Below the pieces are notes generated by a model. It was not told the origin of the DNA. It saw nothing but the letters and a program-made list of their open reading frames with translations, and ran no database searches. The translations under genes were made by a program, and so were the position numbers. DNA of 64,000 nucleotides from Minisyncoccia bacterium (GTDB lineage Bacteria > Patescibacteriota > Minisyncoccia > Phycocordibacterales > UBA9973), in contig JBAQFO010000014.1 of NCBI GenBank assembly GCA_049287305.1, positions 64,453 through 128,452 on the forward strand, in the 5' to 3' direction. Positions 1 through 58,684 of the stretch are shown here, one piece after another. Position 1 is the stretch's first letter. Each line of letters begins with the position of its first letter.

Positions 1-1697
1 TTAACTTTTATGAAAAAATAAAAGTTCCTCCGCCCACATTTTGCCATTTATGCAGAGCCGAAAGGCGTTTTAGTTATAGAAATGAAAGAAAACTTTTCAA
101 GGTAAAAGACGCTTTCACGGGAAAAGAAATTCTATCTACTTACCCAACTGAAAGTGGCAGAAATATAATCACCAGAGACACATGGCTTGGCGACAGCTGG
201 GACGCGATGGATTACGGCATGGATGTGGATTTTTCCAGACCATTTTGGGAGCAAATACATGAGCTTGAAATGAAAGTCCCGATGTATAACTATAATGTTA
301 TAAAAATGATAAACAGTCCTTATGCTTTTAATGCCACAGGGTTGAAGAACAGCTATCTCGTAGTAAATTCTAGTTACTCCGAAGATTGCATGTTCGGCAA
401 CGCAATTGACTATTGTAAGGATTGTGTAGACAACTCTCATATCCAGGAAACCGAAAGATGTTATGAATGTTTCTGGCTGCGCAAATGCTATCAATGTTAT
501 TTTACGATAATGTCATGGGACTCAAGGAATTTATGGTTTTCTAGAGATTGCGGAGGTTGCAGTGATTGTTTCGGGTGTGTTAATTTGCGCCAATCATCCT
601 ATTGTATTTTCAACAAGCAATATACGAAAGAAGAATATGAGAAAGAGATAGAAAAGATGAAACTTGATACCTCTTCAGGCATTAAAGAGGCGCGAGAAAA
701 AGTCAGAGCTTTTTGGCAAACTCAAATAACAAGGCATCAGCAAGGTGTAAGAAATTTAAACTCAACCGGTTCTTATGTAACGGACAGCAAGAATGTAAAA
801 GATAGCTATCTAGTGAGAGAAAGTGAAAATTTAAAATATTGCCAGTACTTACAAGTTCCCAGCAGTAAGGACAATTACGATGTTGCTAACTGGGGCCAGA
901 ATATTGAATTATGCTACGAAACGATAGAGTGCGGAGAAAATTCTTATAATAATAAATTTTCTAGAAATTGCTGGCCATCATGCCGAAACATAGAGTACGG
1001 CGTCCACCTTTTTAGCTCCTCTGATTGTTTTGGCTGCGTAGGTCTGAAGAAGAAACAATATTGTATCTTGAATAAGCAGTATACCAAAGAAGAATATGAG
1101 GAGTTGGTGTCAAAAATAAGAAAGCACATGGAAGATATGCCTTATATTGATTCGCGGGGAATTATTTATAAATATGGGGAATTTTTTCCTATTGAGCTTT
1201 CGCCTTTTGGGTATAACAATACTCTCTCTATTCAGCATTTTGACCTTACAAAAGAAGAAGCAGAAGGTAAGGGATATACTTGGATCGAGTCAGAGAAAGG
1301 GGAATATGTTATTACCATGAAAGCCGACGAGTTGCCTGATGCGATAGAAGATATTGCCGATTCTATTGTAAAAGAAGTTATAGAATGTGAAAAATGCCAG
1401 CGAGCTTATCGTATACTAGAAAACGAATTTATTTTCTTGAAAAAAGAAAATTTACCTCTTCCACGATTATGCAGCGAATGCAGACATGAGCGTCGTATAA
1501 GTGATAGACTAAAGTTGTTTTTATACGAGCGAACCTGCATGTGTGCCGGGGTTACGGACGAAACTGGCAAATATCAAAATACTGTCCAGCATGCGCACAG
1601 AAGCTCCGCCTGTTCGGAAAAATTTAAAACCGGATATTCGGGTGAGCGCCCCGAAATAGTTTATTGCGAAAAGTGCTATCAGCAGGAAGTGTATTAA
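1..1697 (+). CDS. Cysteine-rich multi-zinc-ribbon paralog family member 1 (5' end truncated by window edge; about 20 aa missing)
   Basis: Continuous reading frame from position 3 (NFYEKIKVPPPTFCHLCR...). Shares internal repeats C..C..CFGCV.L+.K.YCI.NKQYTKEEYE (x2), MPYIDSRG..YKYGEFFP..SPFGYN, and the C-terminal C..C..YxI..NE..F.K...LPLPR.C..CRH ... EFETSYAP.RPEIVYCEKCYQQEVY with ORFs at 2759, 4498, 34967, 37574 and 63426(-). Confidence 0.8.
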   Translation, partial: NFYEKIKVPPPTFCHLCRAERRFSYRNERKLFKVKDAFTGKEILSTYPTESGRNIITRDTWLGDSWDAMDYGMDVDFSRPFWEQIHELEMKVPMYNYNVIKMINSPYAFNATGLKNSYLVVNSSYSEDCMFGNAIDYCKDCVDNSHIQETERCYECFWLRKCYQCYFTIMSWDSRNLWFSRDCGGCSDCFGCVNLRQSSYCIFNKQYTKEEYEKEIEKMKLDTSSGIKEAREKVRAFWQTQITRHQQGVRNLNSTGSYVTDSKNVKDSYLVRESENLKYCQYLQVPSSKDNYDVANWGQNIELCYETIECGENSYNNKFSRNCWPSCRNIEYGVHLFSSSDCFGCVGLKKKQYCILNKQYTKEEYEELVSKIRKHMEDMPYIDSRGIIYKYGEFFPIELSPFGYNNTLSIQHFDLTKEEAEGKGYTWIESEKGEYVITMKADELPDAIEDIADSIVKEVIECEKCQRAYRILENEFIFLKKENLPLPRLCSECRHERRISDRLKLFLYERTCMCAGVTDETGKYQNTVQHAHRSSACSEKFKTGYSGERPEIVYCEKCYQQEVY

Positions 1698-2386
1698 ATT
1701 CTATTAACCGCGCGGTAAGTAGCCACTATGGCGGCGGTTTCTCCTCGTAGGGTTAGGGAACCAAGAGAGGCGACTCGGTAGCCTGCTTTTTTTGCAAGTG
1801 CTACTTCTGCTTCAGTAAATCCGCCTTCTGGTCCTATAAAGATATTTACAGTTTTCACATTTTTATTTTGCGAATATGATTCGCCACCGAGGTGGAAGAT
1901 AGTCTTTTCTTCTGCTTCCGGATTATTCTTTAGCGCGTCTTCAAATTTTAAAATAGGGGACAGGGTAGGGACTACGCTTCTTCCTGATTGTTCGCTCGCT
2001 TCCCGGATAATTTTTATGAGGCGTTCGGTATTTAATCCGGTTTTGACAGTCCGCTCGGTAATTATTGGAGTAATGTTTGAAACTCCCGTTTCAACCGCTT
2101 TTTGAACAGCCAGTTCAAAATTTTCTTTCTTTAATATCGCTAAATATAAACTTACTTTTGTTTCGGTTTCTTCCAAGTGTATAATTTTCTCCATACCTAC
2201 AGAAATACTCTTCGGAGACATGTCTAAAATTGTAGCTTCTGCTACACCGCCTTTACCATCTCCCAAAATTATTCTATTTCCAATTTCCAGCCTCAAAACA
2301 CCCTTTATTTGCTTGATATTTTCTGGGTTGGTAATTTTCAGCTCTTTTTTTGACAAATTAAAATCTCCAATAAATCTATGTAATCT
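1694..2386 (-). CDS. rsmE: 16S rRNA (uracil1498-N3)-methyltransferase RsmE (SPOUT family)
   Basis: N-terminal MRLHRF..., C-terminal IFIGPEGGFTEAE...SLG..TLR.ETAA motif typical of RsmE. The ORF track extends to 2404; the internal MRLHRF start at 2386 is more likely. Confidence 0.7.
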   Translation of the reverse strand, partial: RLHRFIGDFNLSKKELKITNPENIKQIKGVLRLEIGNRIILGDGKGGVAEATILDMSPKSISVGMEKIIHLEETETKVSLYLAILKKENFELAVQKAVETGVSNITPIITERTVKTGLNTERLIKIIREASEQSGRSVVPTLSPILKFEDALKNNPEAEEKTIFHLGGESYSQNKNVKTVNIFIGPEGGFTEAEVALAKKAGYRVASLGSLTLRGETAAIVATYRAVNRI

Positions 2387-2447
2387 CATGTTTACATAAT
2401 ACACCCGAAATGTTAAAATAAAAAGTAGTAAATAGTTTCAGATATCA

Positions 2448-2465
2448 TTCTAAAGTTCGTTAGAA
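2448..2465. promoter_or_regulatory. Palindromic operator-like site 1, TTCTAAagttcgTTAGAA (6-6-6 inverted repeat), 17 nt upstream of the ArsR-type gene start
   Basis: Perfect 6-bp inverted arms seen directly. A near-identical copy occurs at 2726-2743. Both are followed by (t/c)at(t)AGAATA. Confidence 0.4.
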
Positions 2466-2481
2466 TTATAGAATATATAAT

Positions 2482-2754
2482 ATGAAAAAATCAAACCGAG
2501 CATTAGAAAGAATTATAAAAGGTTTTGCCAGCTATAGGAGATTACAAATACTAGAACTTTTGAAAAAAGAGCCGGAATTATCCTTGCAGGAAATTTCTGA
2601 AAGGGTTAATTCTGATTTCAAAAATATCTCCTCTCATATTGGTAAAATGGCAATTGCTGGTTTGTTGATGAAGCGCAGTGATGCACATTCAGTAAGACAC
2701 AAATTAACTAAAAGAGGAATTAATGTTCTTAAGTTCGTTAGAACATTAGAATAA
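2482..2754 (+). CDS. ArsR/SmtB-family winged-helix transcriptional regulator
   Basis: 90 aa. SYRRLQILELLKKEPELSLQEISERVNSDFKNISSHIGKMAIAGLL matches the ArsR HTH pattern (L..RL.IL..L...ELS..EI......S.HL..L..AGL). No canonical metal-sensing ELCVCD motif seen. Confidence 0.7.
   Translation: MKKSNRALERIIKGFASYRRLQILELLKKEPELSLQEISERVNSDFKNISSHIGKMAIAGLLMKRSDAHSVRHKLTKRGINVLKFVRTLE
2726..2743. promoter_or_regulatory. Palindromic operator-like site 2, TTCTTAagttcgTTAGAA, overlapping the 3' end of the ArsR-type gene and 16 nt upstream of the Cys-rich paralog 2 start
   Basis: Second copy of the 18-bp motif (17/18 identical to the site at 2448-2465) with the same downstream AGAATA. Confidence 0.4.
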
Positions 2755-2758
2755 AAAA

Positions 2759-4495
2759 ATGGAACAAGAAACAAAAAACTGTCAAAATTGCAAAAAAGAT
2801 TTCATTATAGAGTTCGAGGACTTTAACTTTTACGAGAAAATAAAGGTGCCTCCGCCTACTTTTTGTCCGGAATGCAGAATGACCTCAAGAATGATCTGGA
2901 GAAATGAGCGCTCGCTATACAAACGAGACTGCGATTTCTGTAAAAAGAGTATTATTTCAGTATATTCAAAGGACGCAAATTTTCCTGTTTATTGTTATGA
3001 ATGCTGGTGGGGTGATAATTGGGATCCCAGAGAATATGGACAAGATTACAATTTTTCTAAAGTTTTTTTTGAGCAATTACTTGAGTTATCTACGAAAGTA
3101 CCGCGTCAAGCTCTCGGCGTTATTAGTAATTTTAATAGTCCATATTTAAATTATGCTTGGCATAGCAAGAACAGCTATATGTGTTTTGATCTCGGTTACG
3201 GGGAAAATGTTCTATATTCAAATGCTTGTCATTACCTGAAAGATTCTTCAGATAATAGCTACTGTAAAAAACTTGACCTCTGTTATGAGTGTGCAGATAG
3301 TCAGGAATCAAGTATGTCAGATACCCTTGAAAAATGTAAAAATTGCCTAGATTCTTCTTTTCTTTTTAATTGCAAAAGCTGCTCCTCTTGTATTCTTTGT
3401 TCTAATTTAACTAGCAAGCAGTATTGTATTTTAAATAAACAGTATACAAAAGAAGAATATGAAAAGATAAAAAAAGATTATATCGATGGCAGTTTTGCAA
3501 AGAGGGAAAGCACTGCTAAGTTATTTAAACAATTAAAAATAGAATCAATTCAGAGAGAAAACAATAATGTTCAGGTAAAAAACTGTACAGGAGATAATAT
3601 TTGGAGTAGCGATAATTGTAAAAAATCTTTTAATGTTTTCAAATCTCAAAATTGTAAATTCGTGAATGACATTGATAGCAGTTTAAAGGATAGTATGGAT
3701 TTAAGTAATGCAGCAGAAGGAGAACTTATGTATTACAGCACTTCAGCTAGCGGTAGAAGCCTATTTTTTAATGTTTTTATCTCGTCCTCCTTCAATATAT
3801 TTTATTCAATCTTATGTCCTAACAATAACAACAATTTGTTTGCATGCATTGGCTTGCGAAACAAAAGTTATTGCATATTAAACAAACAGTACACAAAAGA
3901 AGAATACGAAGAGCTTATACCTAAAATTAAAAAACATATGGACGAAATGCCATATATTGATTCTAGGGGTCTTGTATATAAATATGGGGAATTTTTCCCA
4001 AGAGAATTCTCACCATTTTCTTACAACGAAACAGTAGCTCAAGAAAACTTTCCGCTCAACAGAGACGAAGCCATAAATCAAGGTTATAAATGGAAAGATA
4101 AGGATGCCCGAAATTATGCCGTAGAAATCATGAATGAAAATATCCCTGATAATATTAAAGATGCAACTGATGACGTTATAGGTAAAGTTATAGAATGTAA
4201 AAACAAAGGAGAAAACAGCGAACAATGCACAGAAGCGTTCAAAATTATCGAGCAGGAGTTTTATTTTTATAAGAGAATGAATTTACCTTTACCTCGTTTT
4301 TGCCCCAATTGTAGACACCACGAAAGGTTAGGAAAAAGAAACCCCATGAAACTCTGGAAAAGAGGATGCATGTGCGAAAAAGAAAATCATATGCACGGCT
4401 CAATTAAATGTGAAATCGAATTTGAGACAAGTTATGCTCCCGACCGACCAGAGATAATTTACTGTGAAAAGTGCTATCAGCAGGAAGTTTACTAA
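2759..4495 (+). CDS. Cysteine-rich multi-zinc-ribbon paralog family member 2
   Basis: 578 aa. N-terminal C.NC..F.IE.EDFNFYEKIKVPPPTFCPECR...RNE..LY.R.C.FCKK zinc-ribbon module; two internal C..C..C..C..L..K.YCILNKQYTKEEYE repeats; C-terminal module ending EFETSYAPDRPEIIYCEKCYQQEVY. Starts 5 nt after the ArsR stop. Confidence 0.85.
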   Translation: MEQETKNCQNCKKDFIIEFEDFNFYEKIKVPPPTFCPECRMTSRMIWRNERSLYKRDCDFCKKSIISVYSKDANFPVYCYECWWGDNWDPREYGQDYNFSKVFFEQLLELSTKVPRQALGVISNFNSPYLNYAWHSKNSYMCFDLGYGENVLYSNACHYLKDSSDNSYCKKLDLCYECADSQESSMSDTLEKCKNCLDSSFLFNCKSCSSCILCSNLTSKQYCILNKQYTKEEYEKIKKDYIDGSFAKRESTAKLFKQLKIESIQRENNNVQVKNCTGDNIWSSDNCKKSFNVFKSQNCKFVNDIDSSLKDSMDLSNAAEGELMYYSTSASGRSLFFNVFISSSFNIFYSILCPNNNNNLFACIGLRNKSYCILNKQYTKEEYEELIPKIKKHMDEMPYIDSRGLVYKYGEFFPREFSPFSYNETVAQENFPLNRDEAINQGYKWKDKDARNYAVEIMNENIPDNIKDATDDVIGKVIECKNKGENSEQCTEAFKIIEQEFYFYKRMNLPLPRFCPNCRHHERLGKRNPMKLWKRGCMCEKENHMHGSIKCEIEFETSYAPDRPEIIYCEKCYQQEVY

Positions 4496-4497
4496 AT

Positions 4498-6216
4498 ATG
4501 AAAACCGAAACAAAAAATTGTCAAAATTGTAAAAAAGACTTCACTATAGAGCCGGAAGATTTTAACTTTTATGAAAAAATAAAAGTTCCCCCACCAACAT
4601 TTTGTCCGGAATGCAGACTTATGCGTCGTATGACCTGGCGCAATGAACGTACTTTACATAGAAATAAATGTGCTAAAACTGGCAAAAGTTTAATAAGTTG
4701 TTTTTCTGCAGAATCTCCATTTACCGTTTACGAGAGAGATATTTGGTGGGGAGATGAATGGGATCCGACAGGATATGGAATAGAATATGATTTTGAAAAA
4801 CCATTTTTTGCTCAAATTCGCGAATTATTAGAAAAAGTGCCTCACCCAAATCTGTTCATTGGAAAGTGTGTAAATACTTCTTACGGTAATCATATTGGTG
4901 AATTTAGAAATTCATATCTTATATCTGCATCTTGGGGAGGAGATAATATAGCATATGGGTCTCGTTGCAATTACTGCAAAGATTCGATGGATATGTATAT
5001 AACTACTAACTCTGAATTTTGTTATGGTGATATTTCTTCAAATAAATGTTACGAAACTTTCTTCTCTCAGAACGCAGATTCTTGTACGAGCTCATATTTT
5101 CTTTATGATTGTAAAAACTGTATAAATTGCTTCGGTTGCACATCACTTCGCGATAAGTCTAATTGTATGTGGAATGTTCAATATACGAGAGAAGAATATA
5201 ATGAAAAATTAAAAGAATTAGATATTGGTGATTTTGAAAAGTTTAAAAAGATAAAAGAGAAGTTCGAAAAATTTAAATTAAATGCTGTCAGAAGATTTGC
5301 AAATATCACGAACTCAACTAATGTTTCTGGGGATGATATTTCTCATGCAGATAATTCTCAATCTTGCTTTGGTGTCTTTGAAGAAATAAAAAATAATAAA
5401 TTCTTAATGAATGCTTTTCGTATCAAGGATAGTTATGATGGCTATGGTGTTGGCATTGGAGAATTGATATATGAAGCTTTAGATTCTGGTCTTAATGCAT
5501 ATCGGCAACTTTTTGCATTTATAAATTGGGAATGTCTCAATGCTGAATATTCTTTCAACTGTCATGGATGTAACAATATTTTCGGTTGTGTCGGTCTTCG
5601 CAAGAAGAATTACTGCATTTTTAATAAACAATATTCTAAAGAAGAATTTTTAAAACTTCGTGAACAAATTATTGAGCACATGGATAAGATGCCATACATT
5701 GATAAAAAGAAGCGAGAGTATAAATATGGAGAATTTTTCCCGACAGAAATTTCTCCGTTTGGATACAATGAGACTATTGCACAGGATTATTTTCCTCTTT
5801 CTAAAGAAGAAATTTCTAATAATGGTTATAATTGGATAGAACGAGAAAAACCTGAATACCAAGCAACTTCTTTATCTAAAGATTTACCTAATCACATAAA
5901 ATATGCTACAGAAGATATATTAAACCTAAGTATAGAATGTGAATTTTGTAAAAGGCCTTATAAAATAATCCAAAATGAATATATATTTTTAAAAAGGTTT
6001 GGTCTGCCATTGCCGAGAGCTTGTTTCGAATGTAGGCACCAAGAACGATTTAAGAAAGTTAATCCTCCAGAGCTTTGGCACAGATCTTGTATGTGCAATA
6101 AAGAAGGTCATATACACGAATTAACTAAATGCGAAGTTGAATTCGAAACCTCGTATGCTCCCGACAGACCCGAGATTGTCTACTGCGAAAAGTGTTATCA
6201 GCAGGAAGTTTACTGA
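4498..6216 (+). CDS. Cysteine-rich multi-zinc-ribbon paralog family member 3
   Basis: Same family. N-terminal region is about 80% nucleotide-identical to paralog 2, then diverges; C-terminal ...EFETSYAPDRPEIVYCEKCYQQEVY. ATG at 4498 (3 nt after the paralog 2 stop) preferred over the ORF-track start 4471, which overlaps the upstream gene. Confidence 0.85.
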   Translation: MKTETKNCQNCKKDFTIEPEDFNFYEKIKVPPPTFCPECRLMRRMTWRNERTLHRNKCAKTGKSLISCFSAESPFTVYERDIWWGDEWDPTGYGIEYDFEKPFFAQIRELLEKVPHPNLFIGKCVNTSYGNHIGEFRNSYLISASWGGDNIAYGSRCNYCKDSMDMYITTNSEFCYGDISSNKCYETFFSQNADSCTSSYFLYDCKNCINCFGCTSLRDKSNCMWNVQYTREEYNEKLKELDIGDFEKFKKIKEKFEKFKLNAVRRFANITNSTNVSGDDISHADNSQSCFGVFEEIKNNKFLMNAFRIKDSYDGYGVGIGELIYEALDSGLNAYRQLFAFINWECLNAEYSFNCHGCNNIFGCVGLRKKNYCIFNKQYSKEEFLKLREQIIEHMDKMPYIDKKKREYKYGEFFPTEISPFGYNETIAQDYFPLSKEEISNNGYNWIEREKPEYQATSLSKDLPNHIKYATEDILNLSIECEFCKRPYKIIQNEYIFLKRFGLPLPRACFECRHQERFKKVNPPELWHRSCMCNKEGHIHELTKCEVEFETSYAPDRPEIVYCEKCYQQEVY

Positions 6217-6240: not shown

Positions 6241-7737
6241 ATGCCCAAGCCGAATCGAGTGCAAATAATAAAATATGGGCCACCACCGCCAGAGCTGCCT
6301 GTTTTCGGCAAAGTTAAGCCCGAAGAATGCTCTTTCATTGGACGCACGAATTATGTGGCTTCTCTTGAAGAAAAAAAGTTCGTTTTCGGAATCAAAAGAG
6401 TAGACCGCCGCAGGCACCTATATATCATTGGAAAGTCGGGTGTAGGTAAGACCAAACTTCTCGAGCTCATGATTCGACAAGACGTGTCCTACGGGCATGG
6501 ACTATGTTTAATTGACCCGCACGGAGACGTGATAGACGCAATGCTGGATTATATACCGAAGGAGCGAATTGAGGATGTTTGTATTATCGACCCATCCGAT
6601 ATTGATTTTCCGGCGTCCTTCAATCCTTTGGCGAACGTTGACCCCATGTTTAAATTCCAGTTAACGCAAGGGTTGATAGAAGTTTTTCAAAAACAGTTCG
6701 GAGCCAACTGGACGCCCCGCCTGGAGCACGTTTTTCGTTTTACTTGTCTCGCGCTCTTGGACTACCCGCATGCGACCATGCGTGGGATGATATCCATGCT
6801 AACCGACCGAAACTACAGACAGAAAGTTGTGGAATACATTACTGATGACATGGTTAAAAGATTCTTTGCCATAGAATTTGCCGACTGGTCCGAGAAATTT
6901 GATACAGATGCGATTATTCCGTTGGTGAACAAACTCGGGCAATTCCTATCAGACCCGCTTCTTAGAAACATTTTCGGACAGAAACAAAACAAAATTGATA
7001 TCAGTAAATTAATGAATGAGAGAAAAATTATTTTCATTAATCTTTCCAAGGGACGCCTTGGAGAAGAGAATTCCTCATTTCTTGGTTCCATATTTTTAAC
7101 AAAGATAAAACAGGCGGGTATGGAGCGGGCGGCTATCCCGGAAGCTGAACGTAAAGATTTTTATCTTTACGTGGATGAGTTCCAAAACGTCGTGACTCAG
7201 ACTTTTGAGAACATCCTCTCTGAGGCTCGCAAATACGGACTTAATCTTACAATGGCGCATCAATATGTAGGACAGATAATACCTAAAGTTCACCAGGCGG
7301 TGCTAGGTAACTGCGGAAGCATCATTACTTTTCGAATCGGAGGTGAAGATGCAGTGAAAATGAAGCCGGAATTTGCGCCATTGTTTGACGTTAAAGATAT
7401 GATAAATCTAGCCGTGGGAGAGATTTATATAAAGATGACTATTGATGGCGAATCTTACGATCCATTTTCAGCAGAAACTCTGATGGTTCTTCCGGCTACG
7501 CATCCATCTTACAGACAGGAAATAATTGATGCTTCGCATAGAAAATACTCCATACCGAAAGGAGACGCGGCCAAGCTTATTGCCGAAGAAGAAGCAACCA
7601 TAATCAGAAGCTCCGAAGAGAAAGCCATAATAGAAGGAAGGAATAAAACAAAACCCCAAGGACCAGAAGGAGACACAAATTCTTCGGAAGAAAATTCCAA
7701 ATCTCGGACTTCACAAGAGGCGGAGCCTATGATATAA
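6241..7737 (+). CDS. Soluble TraD/VirD4/TrwB-like (type IV coupling protein-like) P-loop ATPase
   Basis: Walker A HLYIIGKSGVGKTKLL, CLIDPHGD, Walker B YLYVDEFQNV, no N-terminal TM segments. Acidic/Ser-rich C-terminal tail. Confidence 0.7.
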   Translation: MPKPNRVQIIKYGPPPPELPVFGKVKPEECSFIGRTNYVASLEEKKFVFGIKRVDRRRHLYIIGKSGVGKTKLLELMIRQDVSYGHGLCLIDPHGDVIDAMLDYIPKERIEDVCIIDPSDIDFPASFNPLANVDPMFKFQLTQGLIEVFQKQFGANWTPRLEHVFRFTCLALLDYPHATMRGMISMLTDRNYRQKVVEYITDDMVKRFFAIEFADWSEKFDTDAIIPLVNKLGQFLSDPLLRNIFGQKQNKIDISKLMNERKIIFINLSKGRLGEENSSFLGSIFLTKIKQAGMERAAIPEAERKDFYLYVDEFQNVVTQTFENILSEARKYGLNLTMAHQYVGQIIPKVHQAVLGNCGSIITFRIGGEDAVKMKPEFAPLFDVKDMINLAVGEIYIKMTIDGESYDPFSAETLMVLPATHPSYRQEIIDASHRKYSIPKGDAAKLIAEEEATIIRSSEEKAIIEGRNKTKPQGPEGDTNSSEENSKSRTSQEAEPMI

Positions 7738-7784
7738 ATAGCCGGGAGAGTCGGAGTTTTTGGCATTAACTACAATTTAAATAT

Positions 7785-8879
7785 ATGAAACAAGACTACT
7801 ACGAAATTCTAGGCATAAATAAAGGCGCATCTAAGGATGAAATCAAAAAAGCCTTTTATAAATTGGCTCATAAATATCACCCTGATAAAAAAGGAGGGGA
7901 TGAGACCAAGTTCAAGCAGGTAAACGAAGCTTATCAAGTGCTCTCTGACGATTCTAAACGCTCTAAATATGACCAATTCGGAGCGGGGTTTGAGAACATG
8001 GGACAGCAAGGAGGATACGGACGGGGACAAGGAGGAGGCTTTGAAGGATTTGACTTCAGTAATTTTTCTGGAGGCTTTCAAAATGGGGGAGCGGATTTTG
8101 ACCTTAATGACATATTTAGTGACTTTTTTGGTGGTGGAATGGGGAGAGCGCAAGCTCGTCGGGGCCGGGATATTTCCACGGAGATTCAAATTTCTTTTGC
8201 GGACTCTGTCTTTGGAACTACCAGAAAAATTTTAATCACAAAAACTTCCAAGTGTATTACTTGCAATGCTACGGGGGCGAAAGCAGGCTCCAAGATGGAA
8301 ACTTGCAAGCACTGCAACGGACAAGGAAAAATTCACGAACAAAAAAGAACTATCTTCGGCACAATAGCCAATACCAAGCTTTGCGAAGTTTGCCTGGGTT
8401 CCGGGGAAGTTCCAAAAGAGCCTTGTGAAAAATGTAAAGGCAAAGGAGTATTGCGCCGAGAGGAAGAAGTTTCTATCGTTATACCAGGAGGAATTCGAGA
8501 CGGAGAGATGGTGCGCATGTCTGGGCTCGGGGAAGCAATTTCAAAAGGAACATCCGGAGACTTGTATATAAAAATAAACGTCGCTTCCCACCCGGTCTTT
8601 AAGCGTGACGGTAATGATTTGGTTATGAATTTAAATTTAAAACTTTCCGATGCGCTTCTGGGGACCAAGTACCCAATACAAACCTTAGACGGAGAAATAG
8701 AAGTTACTATTCCCGAAGGAGTAACCATTAATGAAGTTCTCCGCGTGCGGGGCAAGGGCGTGCCAATAAGTAAATCAAAAAGAGGGGATTTGCTTATTAA
8801 ACTTAATATCAAGCTTCCGGAAAAATTAAACCGCAAATCTAGAGAAATGATAGAAGAGCTCAAAAAAGAAGGAATATAA
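7785..8879 (+). CDS. dnaJ: Chaperone DnaJ
   Basis: J-domain [31 protein letters not shown], Gly/Phe-rich linker, four C..C.G.G zinc-finger repeats, C-terminal substrate-binding domains. Confidence 0.9.
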
Positions 8880-17387: not shown

Positions 17388-18497
17388 ATGAAATACCTTG
17401 AATCGCTTGTTCCCAGGGGTCACTCTTTCAGGCTTAGCGATGAGCTGTTTATGATAAGCAAGTCCGAGCTGGATGTCTTGATTAGCCTCGGACCTGCCGT
17501 AAGTAAATTCATGACGGCTTCTCAAGCCATTATTCAAATGGCATTGCTCGACCTGGATTTATCGGCAAGATGGAAAAGAGTCCGGGAGCTCCTTTTTACC
17601 GACATCAACGCTCAATACAAAAAAACTCTTCATCTTCATCCGCAGCGAAACTCGCGAGTCACCAGGGTGGATTTCATGGTGGACCAAAAAGGGGAATTCA
17701 AAATTGCTGAAATTGACCCCCTAAATAAGCATGGTCTCGGGTTCGCGCTTGCGTGCAGAAACGAGAGCGGCAACGGTGATAGGCAGAAAATCCTGTCATA
17801 TTTTGGGGAGCTTATGCACAACTACGACGAGATGTGCATTATTCTTTCCCCAAAAGATAAATTCTTTACCCTGGAGCAGACTTACTTCGCCGCCAAGCTA
17901 AGCGAAAGCACGGGCAAGCCGGTTTCTGTGATTTCAGGCGAAGACCTCGAAGAATTGAAGAGAAAGGCTCTCAGCGAGAGATGCTGTTTCCTCGATTGTC
18001 CCGTGTTGGATAACGAGACAGCAAACGAGGCACTAATCAAGGTGTTCGTGTCCTCTCCAAAAAGGTTCATTATCCCTCCCAAGCACTGGATGGGTAATAA
18101 GTCTTTAATGGCTTTTGTTCACGACAACGAATCCGGGGTCTCTGGACTTCTAGAGCTTCTACTCGATACTGCTGCTCTCAAAAAGATGAAGTTCCATACG
18201 CCGCCTACTTTCGTAGGCGAACCCTGGGATGACGACGCCCTTGTCATGAAAAAGGTGATGTCGTCGGGGGCAAAAGGTGTTTTCTTTGAAGGGAGAGTTT
18301 CTGATCGAGACGTTATCTATCAGAGATTCGTGCCTCAAAGAACGTATTTGCTGGATGGTAAGAATCAATTCATCCGGCTGGCGGCGCACTATGTAGGGTC
18401 CCGTCTGGCGGAGCTTACGGTTACTGCCTCGGAAAAAATTCCCGTACACGGCAACTCTTCATCAATTAACTACCACGTAGGGCTGAAAACAGACTAA
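17388..18497 (+). CDS. Hypothetical protein (369 aa), moderately GC-enriched
   Basis: Long ORF with an RBS-like aggagag 6 nt upstream of the ATG. No motif I can name with confidence. Confidence 0.45.
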   Translation: MKYLESLVPRGHSFRLSDELFMISKSELDVLISLGPAVSKFMTASQAIIQMALLDLDLSARWKRVRELLFTDINAQYKKTLHLHPQRNSRVTRVDFMVDQKGEFKIAEIDPLNKHGLGFALACRNESGNGDRQKILSYFGELMHNYDEMCIILSPKDKFFTLEQTYFAAKLSESTGKPVSVISGEDLEELKRKALSERCCFLDCPVLDNETANEALIKVFVSSPKRFIIPPKHWMGNKSLMAFVHDNESGVSGLLELLLDTAALKKMKFHTPPTFVGEPWDDDALVMKKVMSSGAKGVFFEGRVSDRDVIYQRFVPQRTYLLDGKNQFIRLAAHYVGSRLAELTVTASEKIPVHGNSSSINYHVGLKTD

Positions 18498-34427: not shown

Positions 34428-34983
34428 TGACTTAGAAAAAAAAATAGAAGCCATCCTTTTTTGGAAAGGGGAGCCGGTCGCACTGAAAAAACTCGGTGAA
34501 ATATTGAAAGTTTCGCCGGGGGAAGTGCTGGAAGCTATTTCGCATTTGAAAGTAACTCTGGAGAGCCGGGGAATAGCGCTTCAGGAAAATAACGAAGAAT
34601 TTACATTGGGCACGGCGCCCGAGTTTTCTGACCTTTTTGAGAATTTACAAAAAGAAGAACTGAACAAAGACCTTTCCAAGGCGGCGCTTGAAACATTGTC
34701 CGTCGTGCTTTATAAAAACGGCGCAAGCCGAGCGGAGATTGATTATATTCGAGGAGTAAACTCAAGCTTCTCTTTACGAGCTCTGTCTATCCGAGGGCTG
34801 GTGGAAAAAACCCTGGATCCGAAAGACAGCAGAAGATTTATCTACAAACCAAGCTTTGACCTCTTGTCGTTTATGGGCGTGAAATCGGTGCAAGAGCTAC
34901 CGGGATGGGAAGAAGTTAATGCTTCCGTAGAAATTGCCGCGAAAAACTTAGAAGAAGAAACTAATAATGAAAGTTCAGGTTAA
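34402..34983 (+). CDS. scpB: Segregation and condensation protein B
   Basis: IEAILFWKGEPVALKKLGEIL...tandem winged-helix, overlaps scpA. Confidence 0.8.
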   Translation: MWLKLLMNNDLEKKIEAILFWKGEPVALKKLGEILKVSPGEVLEAISHLKVTLESRGIALQENNEEFTLGTAPEFSDLFENLQKEELNKDLSKAALETLSVVLYKNGASRAEIDYIRGVNSSFSLRALSIRGLVEKTLDPKDSRRFIYKPSFDLLSFMGVKSVQELPGWEEVNASVEIAAKNLEEETNNESSG

Positions 34984-36646
34984 AACTTGTGTTAACTGCC
35001 AACTAGACTTTACGATAGAGCCGGATGATTTCGGATTTTACGAAAAAATAAATGTGCCTGCACCTACATCCTGCCCAGATTGTAGACTGCAAAGACGTCT
35101 GGCGTGGAGAAATGATCTTACTTTTTATAATCGCAAATGCGATGTGTGTAAAAAAGAGATAATTTCACTTTATCACCAAGATAAACCACTGACTGTTTAT
35201 TGCAATAAGTGCTGGTGGAGCGACAAGTGGGACCCGAAAAGTTACGGCCAAGAGATAGATTTTTCAAGGCCATTTTTTGAGCAGTTTAGAGAATTGCAGG
35301 ACCGAGTGCCGTTGCTCGCAATGTTCAATGATGATGGAGTAGGAAGCGTAAACTGTGAATATACGCAAAATACCACCTTTGCAAAAAATTGCTACATGGG
35401 AGCAATGACCTGGAAAAGCGAGGACGTTATGTATTACTATCATATTGCCGGACCAGAAACGAGAGATGTTGTGGATCCTTTAGATATATTCAACTATTCT
35501 CAAATTATTTATGATTCAATCTTTCTGGAACACTGCTACAATTGCAAGAATTGTTATTACTCAACTGGTCTTACTGATTGTAATTTTTGCTATGACTGCA
35601 AAGGTTGCTCCGATTGTTTTATGTCGGTAAATCTGAGACAGAAAAAATATTGTATTTTAAATAAACAATACACAAAAGAAGAATACAAAAAAATAATAAA
35701 AAGCTACCGGTTGGATACTTTTTCGGGTGTGGCGCGGGCTAAAAAAGAGTTTGCTGATTTTCTTTCTATGCAGATAAGAAGATTTGCAAATATTCGAAAT
35801 TCTGTTAGTTGTACTGGTGATGGAATATTTAATTGTAAGAATGTAAAAAATTCGATATTCGCTAGAGCCTGTGAAAATGTGCGATTTTTTTGGAGAGGCA
35901 ATGATGTTAAAGATAGTTACGACTTAACTCCGGCTGGGGAAACATCGGAGTGCTACGAAGGCCTAACTCCCGACCATGATTATCGCGTCCTATTCTCAAT
36001 CTACTCTTTAAAAAGCCAGGAATTGAGCTATGTAGAAAATTGCCATTCTTCCAAGCACCTATTTGGATGTGCGGGCATCAGGCATGGGCAGTATTCTATT
36101 TTAAATAAAGAGTATTCTAAAGAAGAATATTTCCAACTACGAGATAAGCTTATTAAACACATGAAAACTACGGGGGAGTATGGGGAATTTTTCCCAGGCT
36201 CAATGTCAAATTTTGGCTACAATGAAACAATGGCCCAAGATTATTTTCCTCTAACGAAAGAACAAGCTCTAGCTCGTGGCTTTAAATGGTGGGATAAGAT
36301 CCAAAAAACTCATGGGAAGGAAACGCTTTCCCACGATCAGATACCAGATTCAATTAACAATATTACTGATGCTATACTTGGAGAAGTGTTCGCGTGTCTT
36401 GAGTGTAAAAGAAATTACAAAATTATTAAAAATGAGTTCTTGTTCTACAAAAAACATTTAATACCTATACCTAGAAAATGTTTCTTTTGCAGGCATAGCG
36501 ATCGTATGAAGTTTGAGAATCCCTGTAAACTCTGGCACCGAAAATGTATGAACGAAGGGTGCATAAACGAATTTGAAACCAGCTATGCGCCAGAGCGGCC
36601 GGAAATAATTTACTGCGAAAGTTGTTATAACAAAGAAGTTTATTAG
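34967..36646 (+). CDS. Cysteine-rich multi-zinc-ribbon paralog family member 4
   Basis: 559 aa. TCVNCQLDFTIEPDDFGFYEKINVPAPTSCPDCRLQRRLAWRND..., internal CKGCSDCFMSVNLRQKKYCILNKQYTKEEY, C-terminal FETSYAPERPEIIYCESCYNKEVY. Overlaps the scpB stop by 17 nt. Confidence 0.85.
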   Translation: MKVQVKTCVNCQLDFTIEPDDFGFYEKINVPAPTSCPDCRLQRRLAWRNDLTFYNRKCDVCKKEIISLYHQDKPLTVYCNKCWWSDKWDPKSYGQEIDFSRPFFEQFRELQDRVPLLAMFNDDGVGSVNCEYTQNTTFAKNCYMGAMTWKSEDVMYYYHIAGPETRDVVDPLDIFNYSQIIYDSIFLEHCYNCKNCYYSTGLTDCNFCYDCKGCSDCFMSVNLRQKKYCILNKQYTKEEYKKIIKSYRLDTFSGVARAKKEFADFLSMQIRRFANIRNSVSCTGDGIFNCKNVKNSIFARACENVRFFWRGNDVKDSYDLTPAGETSECYEGLTPDHDYRVLFSIYSLKSQELSYVENCHSSKHLFGCAGIRHGQYSILNKEYSKEEYFQLRDKLIKHMKTTGEYGEFFPGSMSNFGYNETMAQDYFPLTKEQALARGFKWWDKIQKTHGKETLSHDQIPDSINNITDAILGEVFACLECKRNYKIIKNEFLFYKKHLIPIPRKCFFCRHSDRMKFENPCKLWHRKCMNEGCINEFETSYAPERPEIIYCESCYNKEVY

Positions 36647-37573: not shown

Positions 37574-39313
37574 ATGAAGGCAGAGACGAAACAATGCCAG
37601 AACTGCAAATCGGACTTTACTATTGAGCCGGACGATTTCGGGTTTTATGAGAAAATAAAAGTTCCTCTGCCTACATTCTGTCCGGATTGCAGAAGACAAA
37701 GGCGCTGGGCGTGGAGAAACAACATGTCCCTTTACAACCGCCAATGTGAATTATGCGGGAAGGGAGTCGTCTCTCTTTATCATCCAGATTCAGACCTTGT
37801 AGTTTATTGCAATAAATGCTGGTGGAGTGACAAATGGGATCCTAAAAGATATGGAGTAAATTATGATTTTTCCAGAACATTCTTTGCTCAATTCCGCGAG
37901 CTTGTAAGTAAGGTTCCCCATATGGCTATCGTAAATGATGATGGCATAGCCAGTTTAAATTGTGAATATACGCACGACTGGTGGTTCTCAAAAAATTGCT
38001 ATATGTGTTTTTCGGGGTGGTATGTGGAAAATGTGATATATAGTTTTTTCGTATTGAAGGGCAAGGATATTATGGATTGTATGAATATACGTTCGGAAAG
38101 CAATTGGATATACGACTGCACCCTGACAAGCTTGTCTTATAATTCAAAGTATTTAAATTACTGCCTCTCTTGCATTGATTCTCAATTTTTATATAACTGC
38201 ATTAATTGCAATAGTTGTTTCATGTGCGTAAATTTAACCAATAAAAAATATTATTTTAAAAACCGACAATACTCAAAAGAGGAGTATGAAAAAATTTTAG
38301 AAAGTTACCGGCTGGATACGTTTTCCGGAGTAGAAAAAGCCCGAAGAGAGTTTGATACATTTCGCCTGCCTTATCCCCGCCGATTCTTACATCTTTTTCG
38401 CACAGTAAATAGTGTCGGTGACATACTTTCCGATTCTAAAAATACAAAATACTGTTTTGTTACAAAAAATTCCGAGAATTGCAGATACAGCGAATACGCG
38501 GGAGACAAAAATAATCCGAACAAAGACTGCTATGACCTCACTCTGTGCGGAGGTGTGTCGGAGTGCTATGAAGGAGTTGTGTTGGACCATTCCCAATTGA
38601 ATCTTTTCGGACTCTTTTCGGTTAAAAGCCAGGACATACAATATAACCAGCATTGTCACAACTGCAAGCATGTTTTTGGGTGTGTCGGCCTTAGAAACGC
38701 GAGCTATTGTATTTTCAACAAGCAATACACAAAAGAAGAATATGAAAAACTTGTGCCACAAATAATAAAACACATGAATGAGATGCCTTACATGGACAAG
38801 GTCGGCAACGAATATCGCTACGGAGAATATTTTCCGGCTGAGCTTTCTTATTTTGGCTACAATGAATCTTCGGCAATGGAGCAATATCCGCTTACGAAAA
38901 CAGAAGCTATGGAAAAAGGTTTCAGGTGGCAGGATGAAACGCAGCGCACCATTGGGAAGGAAACTTTAAAACCGGAGAATATCCCGGAAGGTATCGAAGA
39001 AATAACAGATTCTGTCTTAAATGAGATATTGGCCTGCGTTGACTGCAAGAGAAACTACAAAATCATTCCCAACGAGCTTATATTTTATAAAAAAATGAAA
39101 ATTCCAATTCCGAGGAGGTGTTTTTATTGTCGTCACGAAGCAAGAGTTAAGAGGTGGAATCCTTTCAAGCTTTGGCACAGAGAATGCATGTGCGGTAAAG
39201 ACAATCATTTCCACGGAGAAGAGAACTGCACAGTGGAGTTTGAAACATCTTACGCGCCGGGCAGGCCGGAAATAGTGTATTGTGAAAAATGTTATCAGGC
39301 AGAGATGTATTAA
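37574..39313 (+). CDS. Cysteine-rich multi-zinc-ribbon paralog family member 5
   Basis: 579 aa. KQCQNCKSDFTIEPDDFGFYEKIKVPLPTFCPDCRRQRRWAWRNN..., C-terminal EFETSYAPGRPEIVYCEKCYQAEMY. Confidence 0.85.
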   Translation: MKAETKQCQNCKSDFTIEPDDFGFYEKIKVPLPTFCPDCRRQRRWAWRNNMSLYNRQCELCGKGVVSLYHPDSDLVVYCNKCWWSDKWDPKRYGVNYDFSRTFFAQFRELVSKVPHMAIVNDDGIASLNCEYTHDWWFSKNCYMCFSGWYVENVIYSFFVLKGKDIMDCMNIRSESNWIYDCTLTSLSYNSKYLNYCLSCIDSQFLYNCINCNSCFMCVNLTNKKYYFKNRQYSKEEYEKILESYRLDTFSGVEKARREFDTFRLPYPRRFLHLFRTVNSVGDILSDSKNTKYCFVTKNSENCRYSEYAGDKNNPNKDCYDLTLCGGVSECYEGVVLDHSQLNLFGLFSVKSQDIQYNQHCHNCKHVFGCVGLRNASYCIFNKQYTKEEYEKLVPQIIKHMNEMPYMDKVGNEYRYGEYFPAELSYFGYNESSAMEQYPLTKTEAMEKGFRWQDETQRTIGKETLKPENIPEGIEEITDSVLNEILACVDCKRNYKIIPNELIFYKKMKIPIPRRCFYCRHEARVKRWNPFKLWHRECMCGKDNHFHGEENCTVEFETSYAPGRPEIVYCEKCYQAEMY

Positions 39314-39870: not shown

Positions 39871-40455
39871 ATGAAAGAAAAAATTATAATTATTGAAGGG
39901 GCAAGTTATTTAAGGTCGGACATAAAGTTGGTGCAAAAACTCATAGTGTTGTTTTATAAAATATTTAACGTAGTTCCATTTTATGATAAAGAACATGAAA
40001 AATGGCTCAAATTGATAGAAAACGGTAATAGGGAAATGATTTATTTTGATTGGTCTGGTCAAGTGTGGCCTCATGTGGTAAATAAAGCCGCACGTAAACT
40101 TGCCTTGTTGGTGGAGAAGGAAGGGCCGGTTAAAATTATATCAACTAGTCTGGGAACCCAAATCGCCATCAAAGCCAGTAAGCACACACAAAACATTAAA
40201 AAAATCGTATCCCTCTCCGGTGTGTATACTCCTCGTCCAATATCAATAGAGTTTATAGATATATATTCTACAAGTGATCGCTTTGCAAATGTATTTAGAT
40301 GCCTGTTGAAATTTATAGCTATACACAGAAGAATCAAGCGCCGAGAGGTAATATTGCATAATATTCGCCACGACCAGTTTCGCGACGATCTGCGATTTAC
40401 AGAAGGTGAATTTAAAGGTTTTACTATGTCTGAATTGTTAAATCATTTTTTATAG
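39871..40455 (+). CDS. Hypothetical protein (194 aa)
   Basis: ORF bracketed by the two repeat copies; no recognisable motif. Confidence 0.4.
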   Translation: MKEKIIIIEGASYLRSDIKLVQKLIVLFYKIFNVVPFYDKEHEKWLKLIENGNREMIYFDWSGQVWPHVVNKAARKLALLVEKEGPVKIISTSLGTQIAIKASKHTQNIKKIVSLSGVYTPRPISIEFIDIYSTSDRFANVFRCLLKFIAIHRRIKRREVILHNIRHDQFRDDLRFTEGEFKGFTMSELLNHFL

Positions 40456-46482: not shown

Positions 46483-47716
46483 TTTTTTATTTTTAGCGGT
46501 TTTACTTTTGGGCATGACTCCTTTTCTTTTTTCCTATGCGGAAACCGCTGATGAAATCAGAGATAAGATAAACCAAAGAAGCGCTGACATTGCGGAGGTA
46601 GAGAAACAGATAAAGGCGTATCAGGCGGAGCTGAACTCTCTAGGCAAGCAGAAAGACTCATTAAGTGTTTCTATAAAAGAACTGGACATTACCAAGAAAA
46701 AACTGGGCGCGGATATTTCGCTTACTCAAAACAAAATAGCAAAGACTAACCTCCAAATTCAAAATTTATCCAGCGATATAGGTGATAAAGAAAGTTCCAT
46801 TAAGACGAATACGGATTCCATTAAGCTTGAAATTAGAAAAATAAACGAGTTAGAAGATAATACGTTTTTAGAGACCATGCTTTCCAACGATGATTTTACG
46901 GTTATTTGGAATGATGTAGATAATATTATGACTGTGCGCGAGGTCATGAGAGACCATATATCTGACCTCAAGGAAACCAAAACAGTTCTGGAAGACACTC
47001 GTCAAGTGACCATAGAAGCCAAAAATGAGCTTACCAGGCTCAAGAACCAACTTTCCGACCAGCAAAAAATAGTTGTCCAGAATGCGAACGAAAAAAACAA
47101 ACTTTTGGCCCAAACTAAAAACAGCGAAGCTAACTATCAGAAACTGGTGCAGGCTCAACTGGCAAAAAAAATAGCTTTTGAAAAAGAGCTGGAAGGCTTT
47201 GAGTCGCAATTGAAATTTATATTAGACCCATCCAAAATACCTTCAGGCAGAGTGTTGAGCTGGCCGCTGGACAGCATATTGGTAACTTCGCCTTATGCCC
47301 CGAGATGGGGAGGATTCCACCGCGGAACGGACTTCCGAGCGCCTGTCGGAACCCAGGTTAAATCGGTCGCGGATGGTGTAGTGAAAGGGGTTGGAGATAC
47401 GGATATTTGCTGCCCAGGAGCATCGTTCGGCAAATGGGTGTTCATAGAACACACCAACGGCTTGTCCACTACCTATGCCCATCTCTCCCTGATTAAAGCC
47501 ACGACAGGGCAAAAGGTGTCCAGGGGGACGGTGATAGGCTATAGCGGTAACACGGGGTCTTCTACGGGCCCGCACTTGCATTTATCATTATACGTATCAA
47601 GCGGGGTTAAGGTGGATTCTTTTGCCAGTAAGTCCTATCCGGGCAAAACTCTGACTCAACCAATATCCGCCACAACCGCTTATCTTGACCCAATGAAATA
47701 TTTACCCGCGCAATAA
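46439..47716 (+). CDS. M23-family peptidase with N-terminal coiled-coil (EnvC/NlpD-like)
   Basis: Signal-anchor, long coiled-coil region, C-terminal HRGTDF...GNTGSSTGPHLHLSLY LytM motifs. Start overlaps the gltX end and is uncertain. Confidence 0.75.
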   Translation: MEKMKRFQDYKKQFSFLFLAVLLLGMTPFLFSYAETADEIRDKINQRSADIAEVEKQIKAYQAELNSLGKQKDSLSVSIKELDITKKKLGADISLTQNKIAKTNLQIQNLSSDIGDKESSIKTNTDSIKLEIRKINELEDNTFLETMLSNDDFTVIWNDVDNIMTVREVMRDHISDLKETKTVLEDTRQVTIEAKNELTRLKNQLSDQQKIVVQNANEKNKLLAQTKNSEANYQKLVQAQLAKKIAFEKELEGFESQLKFILDPSKIPSGRVLSWPLDSILVTSPYAPRWGGFHRGTDFRAPVGTQVKSVADGVVKGVGDTDICCPGASFGKWVFIEHTNGLSTTYAHLSLIKATTGQKVSRGTVIGYSGNTGSSTGPHLHLSLYVSSGVKVDSFASKSYPGKTLTQPISATTAYLDPMKYLPAQ

Positions 47717-47766
47717 AACTTATTTATCTTGCCTGGTTTGGTAATTATGGTAAAATATATCTACAA

Positions 47767-47910
47767 TGAAAAATAAATCAAACAGCCAACAGGGAGGGTT
47801 CCTTCAAATAATTATCGGTATTATAATAGTGCTCATTATCATGAAGCTTTTAGGGATAACGCTTTCAGGGTTTTTTGGCTGGTTCTCGTCTTTTTTTAGT
47901 GACGTTTTAA
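47767..47910 (+). CDS. Unannotated 47-aa hydrophobic peptide (MKNKSNSQQGGFLQIIIGIIIVLIIMKLLGITLSGFFGWFSSFFSDVLR)
   Basis: Translated by hand from the intergenic region; single TM helix; below the ORF-track size cut-off. Confidence 0.25.
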
Positions 47911-47923
47911 GATAAACAACACA

Positions 47924-48250
47924 ATGAAAAATTTAAAAGCAACTAGAGGGATAAGCATACTCGGGTTACTGTTTTTGGGTTTTATTATAATCTTGGTGCT
48001 TAGCTACTTCAGAGTAAGTGTTAAAGACGTCGTGGAGAGCCCTACAGGCCAAGAGAACATAAACTACATAAAAGGGGAGACAGAGAGCTTTTGGGACGCC
48101 TATTTAGCCGAACCTGCCTCTTATCTATGGAACGATGTTTGGATAAATATTTTTTGGAAAGGTTTTATAAACAATATGGAGCGTATTCGCGATGGCAAAC
48201 CTACTGACTATGACGAAGCCTCTACCAACCTTATGGTTACGCCGCAATAA
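47924..48250 (+). CDS. Small membrane-anchored hypothetical protein
   Basis: 108 aa with N-terminal TM helix. Confidence 0.4.
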   Translation: MKNLKATRGISILGLLFLGFIIILVLSYFRVSVKDVVESPTGQENINYIKGETESFWDAYLAEPASYLWNDVWINIFWKGFINNMERIRDGKPTDYDEASTNLMVTPQ

Positions 48251-48375
48251 ACTCGAGGGGGCTCTATAAGGCCTTAGTCAATATAAGTAATACCCCAAAC
48301 ATATATTGTGCGACACGGCCATATAATAAAGATATCAATAAATAAGCCCTGCCCTATCTAATCATCTGTGATAGA

Positions 48376-48753: not shown

Positions 48754-48827
48754 TAATTTAACAGTTTACTTCTTTAAGCGCCGGCAAGCAATATTTACGT
48801 TTTTGAGCTTGTGTGTTCTAATACACA

Positions 48828-49160: not shown

Positions 49161-49163
49161 AAA

Positions 49164-57518: not shown

Positions 57519-57523
57519 AAAAT

Positions 57524-58681: not shown

Positions 58682-58684
58682 GAT

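Follow-up and report, generated by a model that had tools for sequence, protein, structure and literature searches.

An apparently lineage-specific family of cysteine-rich Paceibacteria proteins predicted to hold two beta-solenoids between paired zinc-finger modules

What are the products of long, cysteine-rich genes that occur six times within 64 kb of a bacterial genome and escape every named protein family? The stretch under study (the window) comprises 64,000 nucleotides of a Minisyncoccia bacterium (contig JBAQFO010000014.1, positions 64,453 to 128,452, forward strand), over which open reading frames (ORFs) were listed mechanically and translated. A sequence-only reading of the window had grouped six of these ORFs into one family of cysteine-rich, multi-zinc-ribbon proteins and put them forward as its top candidate for a previously undescribed system. 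Our results indicate a fold, as judged from a structural model, in which two homologous narrow beta-solenoids with Cys/Ser-lined cores are held between two homologous double zinc-finger modules. The ends are known finger types and the middle is a known fold class; the combination is unmatched by anything known, about 70% of the protein is without a named domain, and no paper on the family was found. We propose, with a probability of about 0.4, that these proteins form a panel of rigid, zinc-stabilised recognition or adaptor proteins whose solenoid surfaces are specific to each paralog.

All six reading frames were recovered. Paralog 1 (3-1697, plus strand) is cut at its 5' end by the window edge, is open from base 3 with 564 aa visible, and was assigned by translation, alignment and a match to the family hidden Markov model (HMM). 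Paralog 2 (2759-4495, plus strand; 578 aa, complete) starts 4 bases past the stop of a small winged-helix gene. Paralog 3 (4498-6216, plus strand; 572 aa, complete) begins 2 bases past the end of paralog 2 and is followed 24 bases downstream by a gene for a VirD4-like ATPase; an open upstream GTG exists at 4471, yet the ATG at 4498 is the start favoured by the alignment. Paralog 4 (34967-36646, plus strand; 559 aa) lies directly after scpA-scpB, while paralog 5 (37574-39313, plus strand; 579 aa) lies between vanY, on the minus strand, and a NUDIX gene, and is identical to protein WAV15_04010 of an NCBI metagenome-assembled genome (MAG) of a Minisyncoccia bacterium. Paralog 6 (63426-63998, minus strand, reaching the window edge at 64000) contributes its C-terminal 190 aa and is located, on that strand, upstream of purQ/purF. 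The combined length is about 9.1 kb, or about 14% of the DNA of the window, and every copy is an uninterrupted reading frame.

The five long copies are 39-52% identical to one another in a multiple alignment, and the conserved blocks listed by the sequence-only reading are present in it. That reading was also right about internal duplication: with paralog 5 as reference for all residue numbers, the N-terminal module recurs at the C-terminus (residues 1-100 versus 471-579, 31% identity over 97 aa, E 1e-17) and the central block is itself doubled (solenoid 1 plus cap versus solenoid 2 plus cap, 32% over 107 aa, E 6e-14). A common architecture for all copies holds for this duplicated plan and fails in detail, as the MPYID block is deleted in paralogs 4 and 6. 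The His-rich loop of the C-terminal finger is missing from paralog 4, and copies 3-1697 and 4498-6216 retain nothing of the Cys4 set that forms the second N-terminal site. The four complete copies contain 32-37 Cys and the cut copy 3-1697 contains 31, fewer than the 35-45 first estimated; across the family the median is 37 (range, 26-49). No transmembrane helix is indicated, the mean hydropathy over 19 residues (Kyte-Doolittle) never rising above 1.59, in agreement with the earlier view, and no signal peptide was seen by eye.

Sequence comparison indicates that the window paralogs are old and functional and have been held under purifying selection. Paralog 5, the only copy searched directly, has full-length relatives that are 64-79% identical. 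Among 82 fetched loci (195 family ORFs, 172 full-length genes), relatives 68-78% identical and from other species were found for four of the five long copies; the best relative of copy 2759-4495 among these loci is only about 50% identical. Within arrays elsewhere, identity is 30-54% and never higher, and the 172 full-length genes fall into 68 clusters at 58% identity. Gene conversion was considered as a source of the near-identical termini and was ruled out by the share of identical codons among identical residues between window paralogs, which is about 0.5 everywhere, conserved termini included. As there is no excess of identical codons in the termini, it is selection at the protein level that keeps the ends alike. 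One subfamily's copies do occur in different neighbourhoods across species, as might be expected if the genes were decaying or selfish DNA, either pseudogenes or a mobile gene cassette. However, all window copies are intact, their termini are conserved as protein without codon identity, there are no recent duplicates (54% identity being the array maximum), the gaps of a few bases between genes leave no space for element ends, and there is no transposase or nuclease domain. This explanation is effectively refuted: the uninterrupted frames, the close relatives of paralog 5 and the selection at the protein level all show that the copies are not pseudogenes.

The structure of paralog 5 was modelled with AlphaFold2 (AF2). 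With 31 fairly close sequences the model was mediocre (predicted local distance difference test score [pLDDT], 75), and with 143 diverse sequences, 33-56% identical to the target, pLDDT rose to 92 with a predicted template modelling score (pTM) of 0.91. This pTM implies that the relative placement of all parts is confident and that the protein forms one compact body. The N-terminal zinc module (residues 1-95; 37574-37858, plus strand, as for all parts of this protein) was delimited by Cys conservation, Pfam mapping and spacing, and is followed by a conserved acidic/aromatic linker with one predicted helix (residues about 96-120). Beta-solenoid 1 (residues 121-232; 37934-38269) is built of coils of about 12 residues in which every third residue is Cys or Ser, and its last element is the cap YYFKNRQYSKEEYE. 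A helical hairpin (residues 233-266; 38270-38371; predicted helices 235-245 and 250-264) connects it to the homologous beta-solenoid 2 (residues 267-384; 38372-38725), which ends in the cap YCIFNKQYTKEEYE; the caps follow the pattern YCIxNKQY(S/T)KEEYE. A long helix and a small conserved acidic domain come next (residues 385-484; 38726-39025), with the motif YGE(F/Y)FP...S.F.YNE(T/S).A, in which G417, P421, S425, Y429 and N430 are invariant or nearly so. The C-terminal zinc module (residues 485-579; 39026-39310), homologous to the N-terminal one and delimited by Cys conservation and Pfam mapping, completes the protein.

Conservation is unevenly spread over this body. Column conservation is 0.32-0.44 in the solenoid bodies and hairpin versus 0.5-0.67 in the zinc modules, the caps and the motif of the C-terminal domain. 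The zinc modules are basic (median net charge, +2 and +5) and the remainder is acidic. Polar residues that are invariant or nearly so are D86, D98, Q106, N230, N382, K383, S425 and N430.

Each terminal module has two sets of four Cys and an Arg-rich helix; the Cys frequencies were taken from the alignment of 143 sequences. N-terminal site 1 (C8, C11, C36 and C39; Cys in 98-100%) is of the zf_Tbcl type and leads into an Arg-rich helix, CRRQRRWAWRN. N-terminal site 2 (C58-x2-C61-x17-C79-x2-C82) is of the zf_Tbcl_2 type, with Cys in 85% at position 58 and 54% at positions 61, 79 and 82. At the other end, C-terminal site 1 consists of C488 (100%), C491, C516 and C519 (83-85%), and C-terminal site 2 of C538, C552, C570 and C573 (99%); an optional loop (C540, H545 and H547) is found in 65-66% of the family. 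Cysteines within a finger are present or absent together (phi of 1.00 among positions 61, 79 and 82, and of 0.82-0.90 among 491, 516 and 519), and 46% of the family has lost the whole of N-terminal site 2. Metal sites would be expected to disappear as complete sets in this way. The AF2 model also has the form of a treble clef at both first sites, with C8xxC11...C36xxC39 leading into a helix at 37-46 and C488xxC491...C516xxC519 into a helix at 517-525. Copies 2759, 34967 and 37574 have precisely the spacing CxxC-x17-CxxC at N-terminal site 2; at C-terminal site 2 this is true of the second half (C552-x17-C570xxC573), the loop interrupting the first pair.

The assignment of these ends to known finger types comes from weak but consistent Pfam matches. 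Among 74 mutually distant members, zf_Tbcl_2 (PF23477; 37 profile positions) matched 31 and zf_Tbcl (PF13451; 48 profile positions) matched 26, at E <1 with a best value of about 2e-6, and on mapping zf_Tbcl fell on site 1 and zf_Tbcl_2 on site 2 in both terminal modules. The best E value for zf_Tbcl was 2.5e-6; its best score among ten individually mapped members was 22.6 bits, under the gathering cut-off of 24 bits, and in the window copies it had no match at E <=1. For zf_Tbcl_2, with a cut-off of 27 bits, one member (P0182) reached 27.8 bits, whereas the window copies scored 12.7-13.5 bits, that is, about 13-14 bits, and about 46% of the family is without N-terminal site 2. Matches to Med15_N in 16 of the 74 members fall on the KEEYE cap helix and were treated as compositional. 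The earlier statement that no named domain could be found therefore needs qualification: the terminal modules are zf_Tbcl and zf_Tbcl_2 fingers, while the window copies do remain below threshold and no curated family covers these proteins.

Terminal site 1 is like zf_Tbcl in having CxxC, a helix-bearing insert and CxxC followed by a helix, and terminal site 2 is like zf_Tbcl_2 in its CxxC-x17-CxxC pattern. The CxxC-x17-CxxC domain of small Methanosarcina mazei proteins binds zinc, as determined by inductively coupled plasma mass spectrometry (PMC12704099). By this likeness, we infer that the terminal modules of the present family probably bind zinc at two to four, possibly five, sites. The M. 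mazei examples are small, whereas here two tandem pairs cap a body of about 400 residues. No function is assigned to zf_Tbcl or zf_Tbcl_2 domains in the material found.

The Cys of the solenoids behave differently from those of the termini. The summed frequency of Cys and Ser along the solenoids is autocorrelated at lags 3, 6 and 12 (0.73, 0.57 and 0.56, respectively). The Cys columns contain 20-93% Cys, Ser is the second commonest residue in nearly every one of them, and they vary independently (pairwise phi, <=0.38). Only C215 and C370, which are at equivalent positions in two FGC motifs, exceed 90%; in the last coil of solenoid 1 (C209, C212, C215 and C218) the values are 78-93%. Independent exchange of Cys and Ser leads us to read the central Cys as small residues lining the core of a narrow solenoid. 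The alternative is a metal or redox protein, in which metal ions or Fe-S clusters would be bound in a chain by the stacked solenoid Cys and would serve in storage, detoxification or electron transfer. Such a role would suit proteins with 26-49 Cys, which present up to four Cys per 12-residue coil at i, i+3, i+6 and i+9, as in that last coil, and which come from a group generally held to be anaerobic, in which thiols would stay reduced. Nevertheless, the replacement by Ser, the low phi values and the scarcity of columns above 90% are all at odds with the genuine sites of the same proteins, which are lost as units (phi, 0.82-1.00), and there is no ferredoxin, radical-SAM or metallothionein signature. 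We regard a metal or redox role of the solenoids as very improbable, and an Fe-S or multi-metal centre in them as contradicted by the lack of Cys covariation and the Ser replacement. The proposal of a multi-zinc protein may thus hold for the termini, with their two to four (possibly five) likely zinc sites, and does not extend to the Cys-dense centre.

Comparison with solved structures gives a class for the solenoids and no specific relative for the protein. The solenoid region superposes on solved solenoids as stacked short coils, the superpositions having only 2-8% sequence identity; a Foldseek search of the PDB gave no match with E <0.05, and the PDB fold search found nothing like the whole protein, the C-terminal domain or the paired zinc modules. 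The nearest narrow beta-solenoids are the curli protein CsgA (8c50), the Tenebrio and spruce-budworm antifreeze proteins (1ezg and 1m8n) and the ryegrass ice-binding protein (3ult), which likewise have short coils but are just 3-5% identical in sequence. The Tenebrio antifreeze protein TmAFP has 12-residue coils with a Cys-filled core. These proteins are secreted, the beetle antifreeze protein being disulfide bonded, or amyloid forming. The present family differs from them in being cytoplasmic, in having Cys or Ser at every third residue, in its two blocks with helical caps and in its zinc-finger flanks. The left-handed beta-helix enzymes (LpxA, the C-terminal domain of GlmU and gamma-carbonic anhydrase) differ as well: their 18-residue hexapeptide coil, their trimeric active sites and the hexapeptide signature are absent here, and Pfam Hexapep had no match in the window copies or the 74 members. 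A cytoplasmic solenoid that has duplicated zinc caps and a core of Cys and Ser, as the model gives, is unusual.

We favour, at the probability given above, the view that these proteins serve as a set of rigid recognition factors or adaptors. The two basic zinc modules and the C-terminal domain would provide a common function in docking or in binding nucleic acid or protein, and the variable solenoid faces would give each paralog a ligand of its own. Each genome would then keep a panel of non-redundant specificities for core cellular processes; more tentatively, it may be that this panel supplies or regulates the orphan VirD4-like hexameric ATPases, whose genes it often flanks. The retention of many old, non-redundant copies fits a recognition panel. 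There are several points against this view. We infer the term adaptor from shape and from the pattern of conservation, and no structural match in the PDB backs binding of nucleic acid by the zinc modules. Invariant D86, D98, N230, N382, S425 and N430 would suit an enzyme equally well. Family genes were found beside the ATPases in only two of four ATPase-centred loci; in the others there are none within 10 kb and the ATPase genes abut. Many family copies occur in contexts without any ATPase, the loci are phylogenetically related, so that adjacency counts are not independent, and in such tightly packed genomes short gaps say little about co-transcription.

An enzymatic role would require that a catalytic or cofactor site be formed from polar residues of the linker, caps and C-terminal domain, with each paralog acting on a separate substrate, for example RNA, protein or a cell-wall precursor. 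The single compact body (pTM, 0.91), the eight polar residues that are invariant or nearly so, the divergence of orthologues at ordinary housekeeping rates (65-79% identity) and the position of the genes within housekeeping operons would all be expected of paralogous enzymes. No catalytic motif or enzyme family was found by sequence or fold, however, and the coil, of about 12 residues with a period of three in Cys/Ser, is unlike the 18-residue hexapeptide coil of enzymatic left-handed beta-helices. A structural capping role is the simpler explanation for the invariant Asn of each cap. We think an enzymatic role unlikely, though it deserves to be kept in mind.

How widely does the family occur? 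The window copies had no match above cut-off in Pfam, NCBIfam or PADLOC (the last gave one stray match, to Csx20 at E 0.027, in one copy), and a profile of the six copies had none among PDB sequences; with the fold searches, no full-length match to a characterised family was obtained. A word-indexed protein search with paralog 5 alone as query returned >6,200 proteins, for which the names given were all 'hypothetical protein' and none of which had a precomputed Pfam domain; their sources were MAGs of Minisyncoccia, Paceibacterota, Nomurabacteria or Patescibacteria. When 1.84 billion cluster representatives were searched exhaustively with an HMM, 5,121 clusters at 50% identity had E <1e-3 and 2,239 had E <1e-30, and full-length proteins (433-612 aa, mostly 527-612) make up all of the best 150. 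With one genome scanned per species, >560 loci were found; the 80 listed are from Paceibacteria-type bacteria of the candidate phyla radiation (CPR) or from unclassified MAGs, with one exception. This exception (L059, contig JBHEKU010000072.1, 2.6 kb) was binned as part of an Ignavibacteria MAG and is most likely a binning error rather than an occurrence outside the CPR. A literature search (cysteine-rich or zinc paralog families of Patescibacteria, the Pfam accessions and the FESNov paper) found no description of the family. By its sequence distribution, the family thus appears to be specific to the Paceibacteria, a lineage of CPR bacteria, and undescribed, as well as large, with >5,000 clusters and with sampled members from Paceibacteria-type MAGs; the sequence-only reading had argued for a lineage-specific function.

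Weak matches to phage families were also seen. The phage family phrog_15341, of unknown function, matches the solenoid of paralog 5 (residues 122-233, E 5e-5), with matches also in copies 3-1697 and 34967-36646 (E values across the three copies of 5e-5, 3e-4 and 8e-3). The C-terminal end of phrog_9336 gave a weak match to the N-terminal module in three copies. A scan of IMG/VR and a tblastn search of GenBank phages found no relatives, and the idea of a phage gene was dropped. An anti-phage or conflict system, in which the family would be a sensor array with variable recognition surfaces, might be suspected from the tandem arrays with variable middles and from the phrog_15341 match. But PADLOC gave nothing meaningful, there is no effector domain, no relatives occur in the two phage collections, the paralogs evolve slowly, and several of the contexts recur across species in housekeeping operons rather than in variable islands. 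We give a defence role little credence.

Is there a partner gene? The VirD4/TraD-like P-loop ATPase next to paralog 3 (6241-7737, plus strand; 498 aa) resembles a type IV coupling protein (T4CP), with matches to Pfam TrwB_AAD_bind, T4SS-DNA_transf, DUF87 and TraG-D_C, and is followed by dnaJ; an N-terminal hydrophobic segment is not evident by eye. ATPases of this kind are the commonest neighbour family, with 43 genes in 27 of the 82 loci and 28 direct same-strand adjacencies at gaps of -34 to +126 bp. A rough estimate of the chance expectation, from about two T4CP homologues per genome (PMC12102498) and an assumed 800 or so genes, is about one adjacency among the 172 genes. The adjacent ATPases fall into length classes of about 500, 670-830 and about 910 aa, and the middle class ends in a CxxC-x17-CxxC finger of its own (precomputed PF23477 matches). 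The interval between dnaK and dnaJ (window 6241-8879; L083-L087) has two VirD4/TraD-like genes, one encoding about 700 aa that include a low-complexity tail and, at the C-terminal end, a zf_Tbcl_2 finger, the other encoding about 500 aa; in four distinct ATPase-centred loci the core order is dnaK, long ATPase, short ATPase, dnaJ. The short ATPase is 84-93% identical among the 120 homologues listed, far above the conservation of the family. Such conservation is unusual for a 'conjugation' protein and suggests a core cellular role. No gene for VirB4 or another channel component of a type IV secretion system (T4SS) is among the window genes annotated. We conclude that the ATPase association is real but is a tendency and not obligatory; the claim of a system is not borne out, as no obligatory partner gene was found and the association with VirD4-like ATPases is only partial.

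A stronger version of the adaptor view would make the family the specificity layer of an undescribed ATP-driven machine, with the adaptors bringing DNA, RNA or protein clients to the VirD4-like ATPases. We consider this distinctly unlikely, and the same applies, jointly, to the part of it in which the orphan ATPases between dnaK and dnaJ would be coupling-protein homologues exapted from type IV secretion. A survey of 2,918 patescibacterial genomes found 5,713 VirD4-like homologues, only 148 of them near virB4, and its authors raised possible exaptation (PMC12102498). If the machine does exist, it would explain both the many copies of a 1.7-kb gene in sub-megabase genomes and the role of the two or so orphan T4CP homologues in each patescibacterial genome. 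Even as a partial link, the ATPase association provides a testable handle on the question, raised in the literature, of what exapted coupling proteins do.

The same adjacency could indicate cargo rather than adaptors, that is, T4CP-dependent effectors bound through the C-terminal module and exported to the host cell of presumed episymbionts. In Xanthomonas, T4SS effectors share a conserved C-terminal domain that binds VirD4. The family is alike in its multi-copy arrays, its very conserved C-terminal module, its variable middle and its VirD4-like neighbours, an analogy of arrangement only; the lack of a transmembrane helix and, by eye, of a signal peptide would also be appropriate for such cargo. 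The differences are considerable, however. The ATPases here are orphan and housekeeping-like, lying between dnaK and dnaJ and not near virB4, in line with the 148 of 5,713 cited above; they are among the most conserved proteins here, no anchor is evident by eye in the window ATPase, and no channel gene is annotated in the window. Fast evolution is not what the paralogs show, being old and held under purifying selection, and a rigid multi-zinc fold would be a poor substrate for translocation. We therefore consider export as cargo improbable, and adaptors remain the reading that we prefer.

Paceibacteria have genomes of well under 1 Mb. The share of coding DNA given to the family, the purifying selection and the location in housekeeping operons point to an important lineage-specific activity that is not captured by annotation. 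Unknown families are common in the CPR, and this one stands out in its size, its dosage, a structure that is modelled with confidence yet is unmatched, and its link to orphan ATPases. A curated model would name and count thousands of proteins now called hypothetical.

The settings of the genes recur across loci. Window copies 1-3 are in the dnaK...dnaJ region, copies 4 and 5 in the order scpA-scpB-FAM-vanY(-)-FAM-mraY-ftsW-murG, where FAM is a family gene, and copy 6 with purine-synthesis genes. A further recurrent setting is a gene cluster with a methionine aminopeptidase gene at its end, which, on inspection of the sequence, we read as the probable secY-adk-map end of the ribosomal-protein operon. 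The longest same-strand arrays have seven contiguous genes (L070) or eight family ORFs corresponding to about seven genes (L062), and arrays of five or six occur in L069, L022, L063 and L081.

The winged-helix gene immediately upstream of paralog 2 (2482-2754, plus strand; 90 aa, ArsR/MarR-like) was rejected as a regular partner, being present in only 3 of 83 sources (the window and two loci). It is bracketed by a direct repeat of 13 exact bases, AAGTTCGTTAGAA, at 2453 and 2731, which extends as AAGTTCGTTAGAA..T.AGAATA over 2451-2475 and 2729-2753 (chance expectation, 0.2 matches). One copy is just upstream of the start of the winged-helix gene and the other just upstream of paralog 2; the repeat might be an operator common to both, or might have been left behind by an insertion or a duplication.

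The other window genes annotated include those for aminoacyl-tRNA synthetases, DnaB, PBP2, peptidases and purine enzymes. A run of purB, purD, purF-like and purQ genes occupies 55177-63424 on the minus strand, headed by family copy 6; CPR bacteria usually lack nucleotide biosynthesis. At about 47700-49200 GC skew turns from positive to negative, and around 48 kb the predominant gene orientation changes from plus to minus, a convergence of genes as at a replication terminus. Two ORFs, at 17388-18497 (369 aa) and 39871-40455 (194 aa), had no Pfam match at thresholds of E 1e-5 and 1e-3. The 194-aa ORF also follows the NUDIX gene in L001, a locus with an identical paralog 5 gene.

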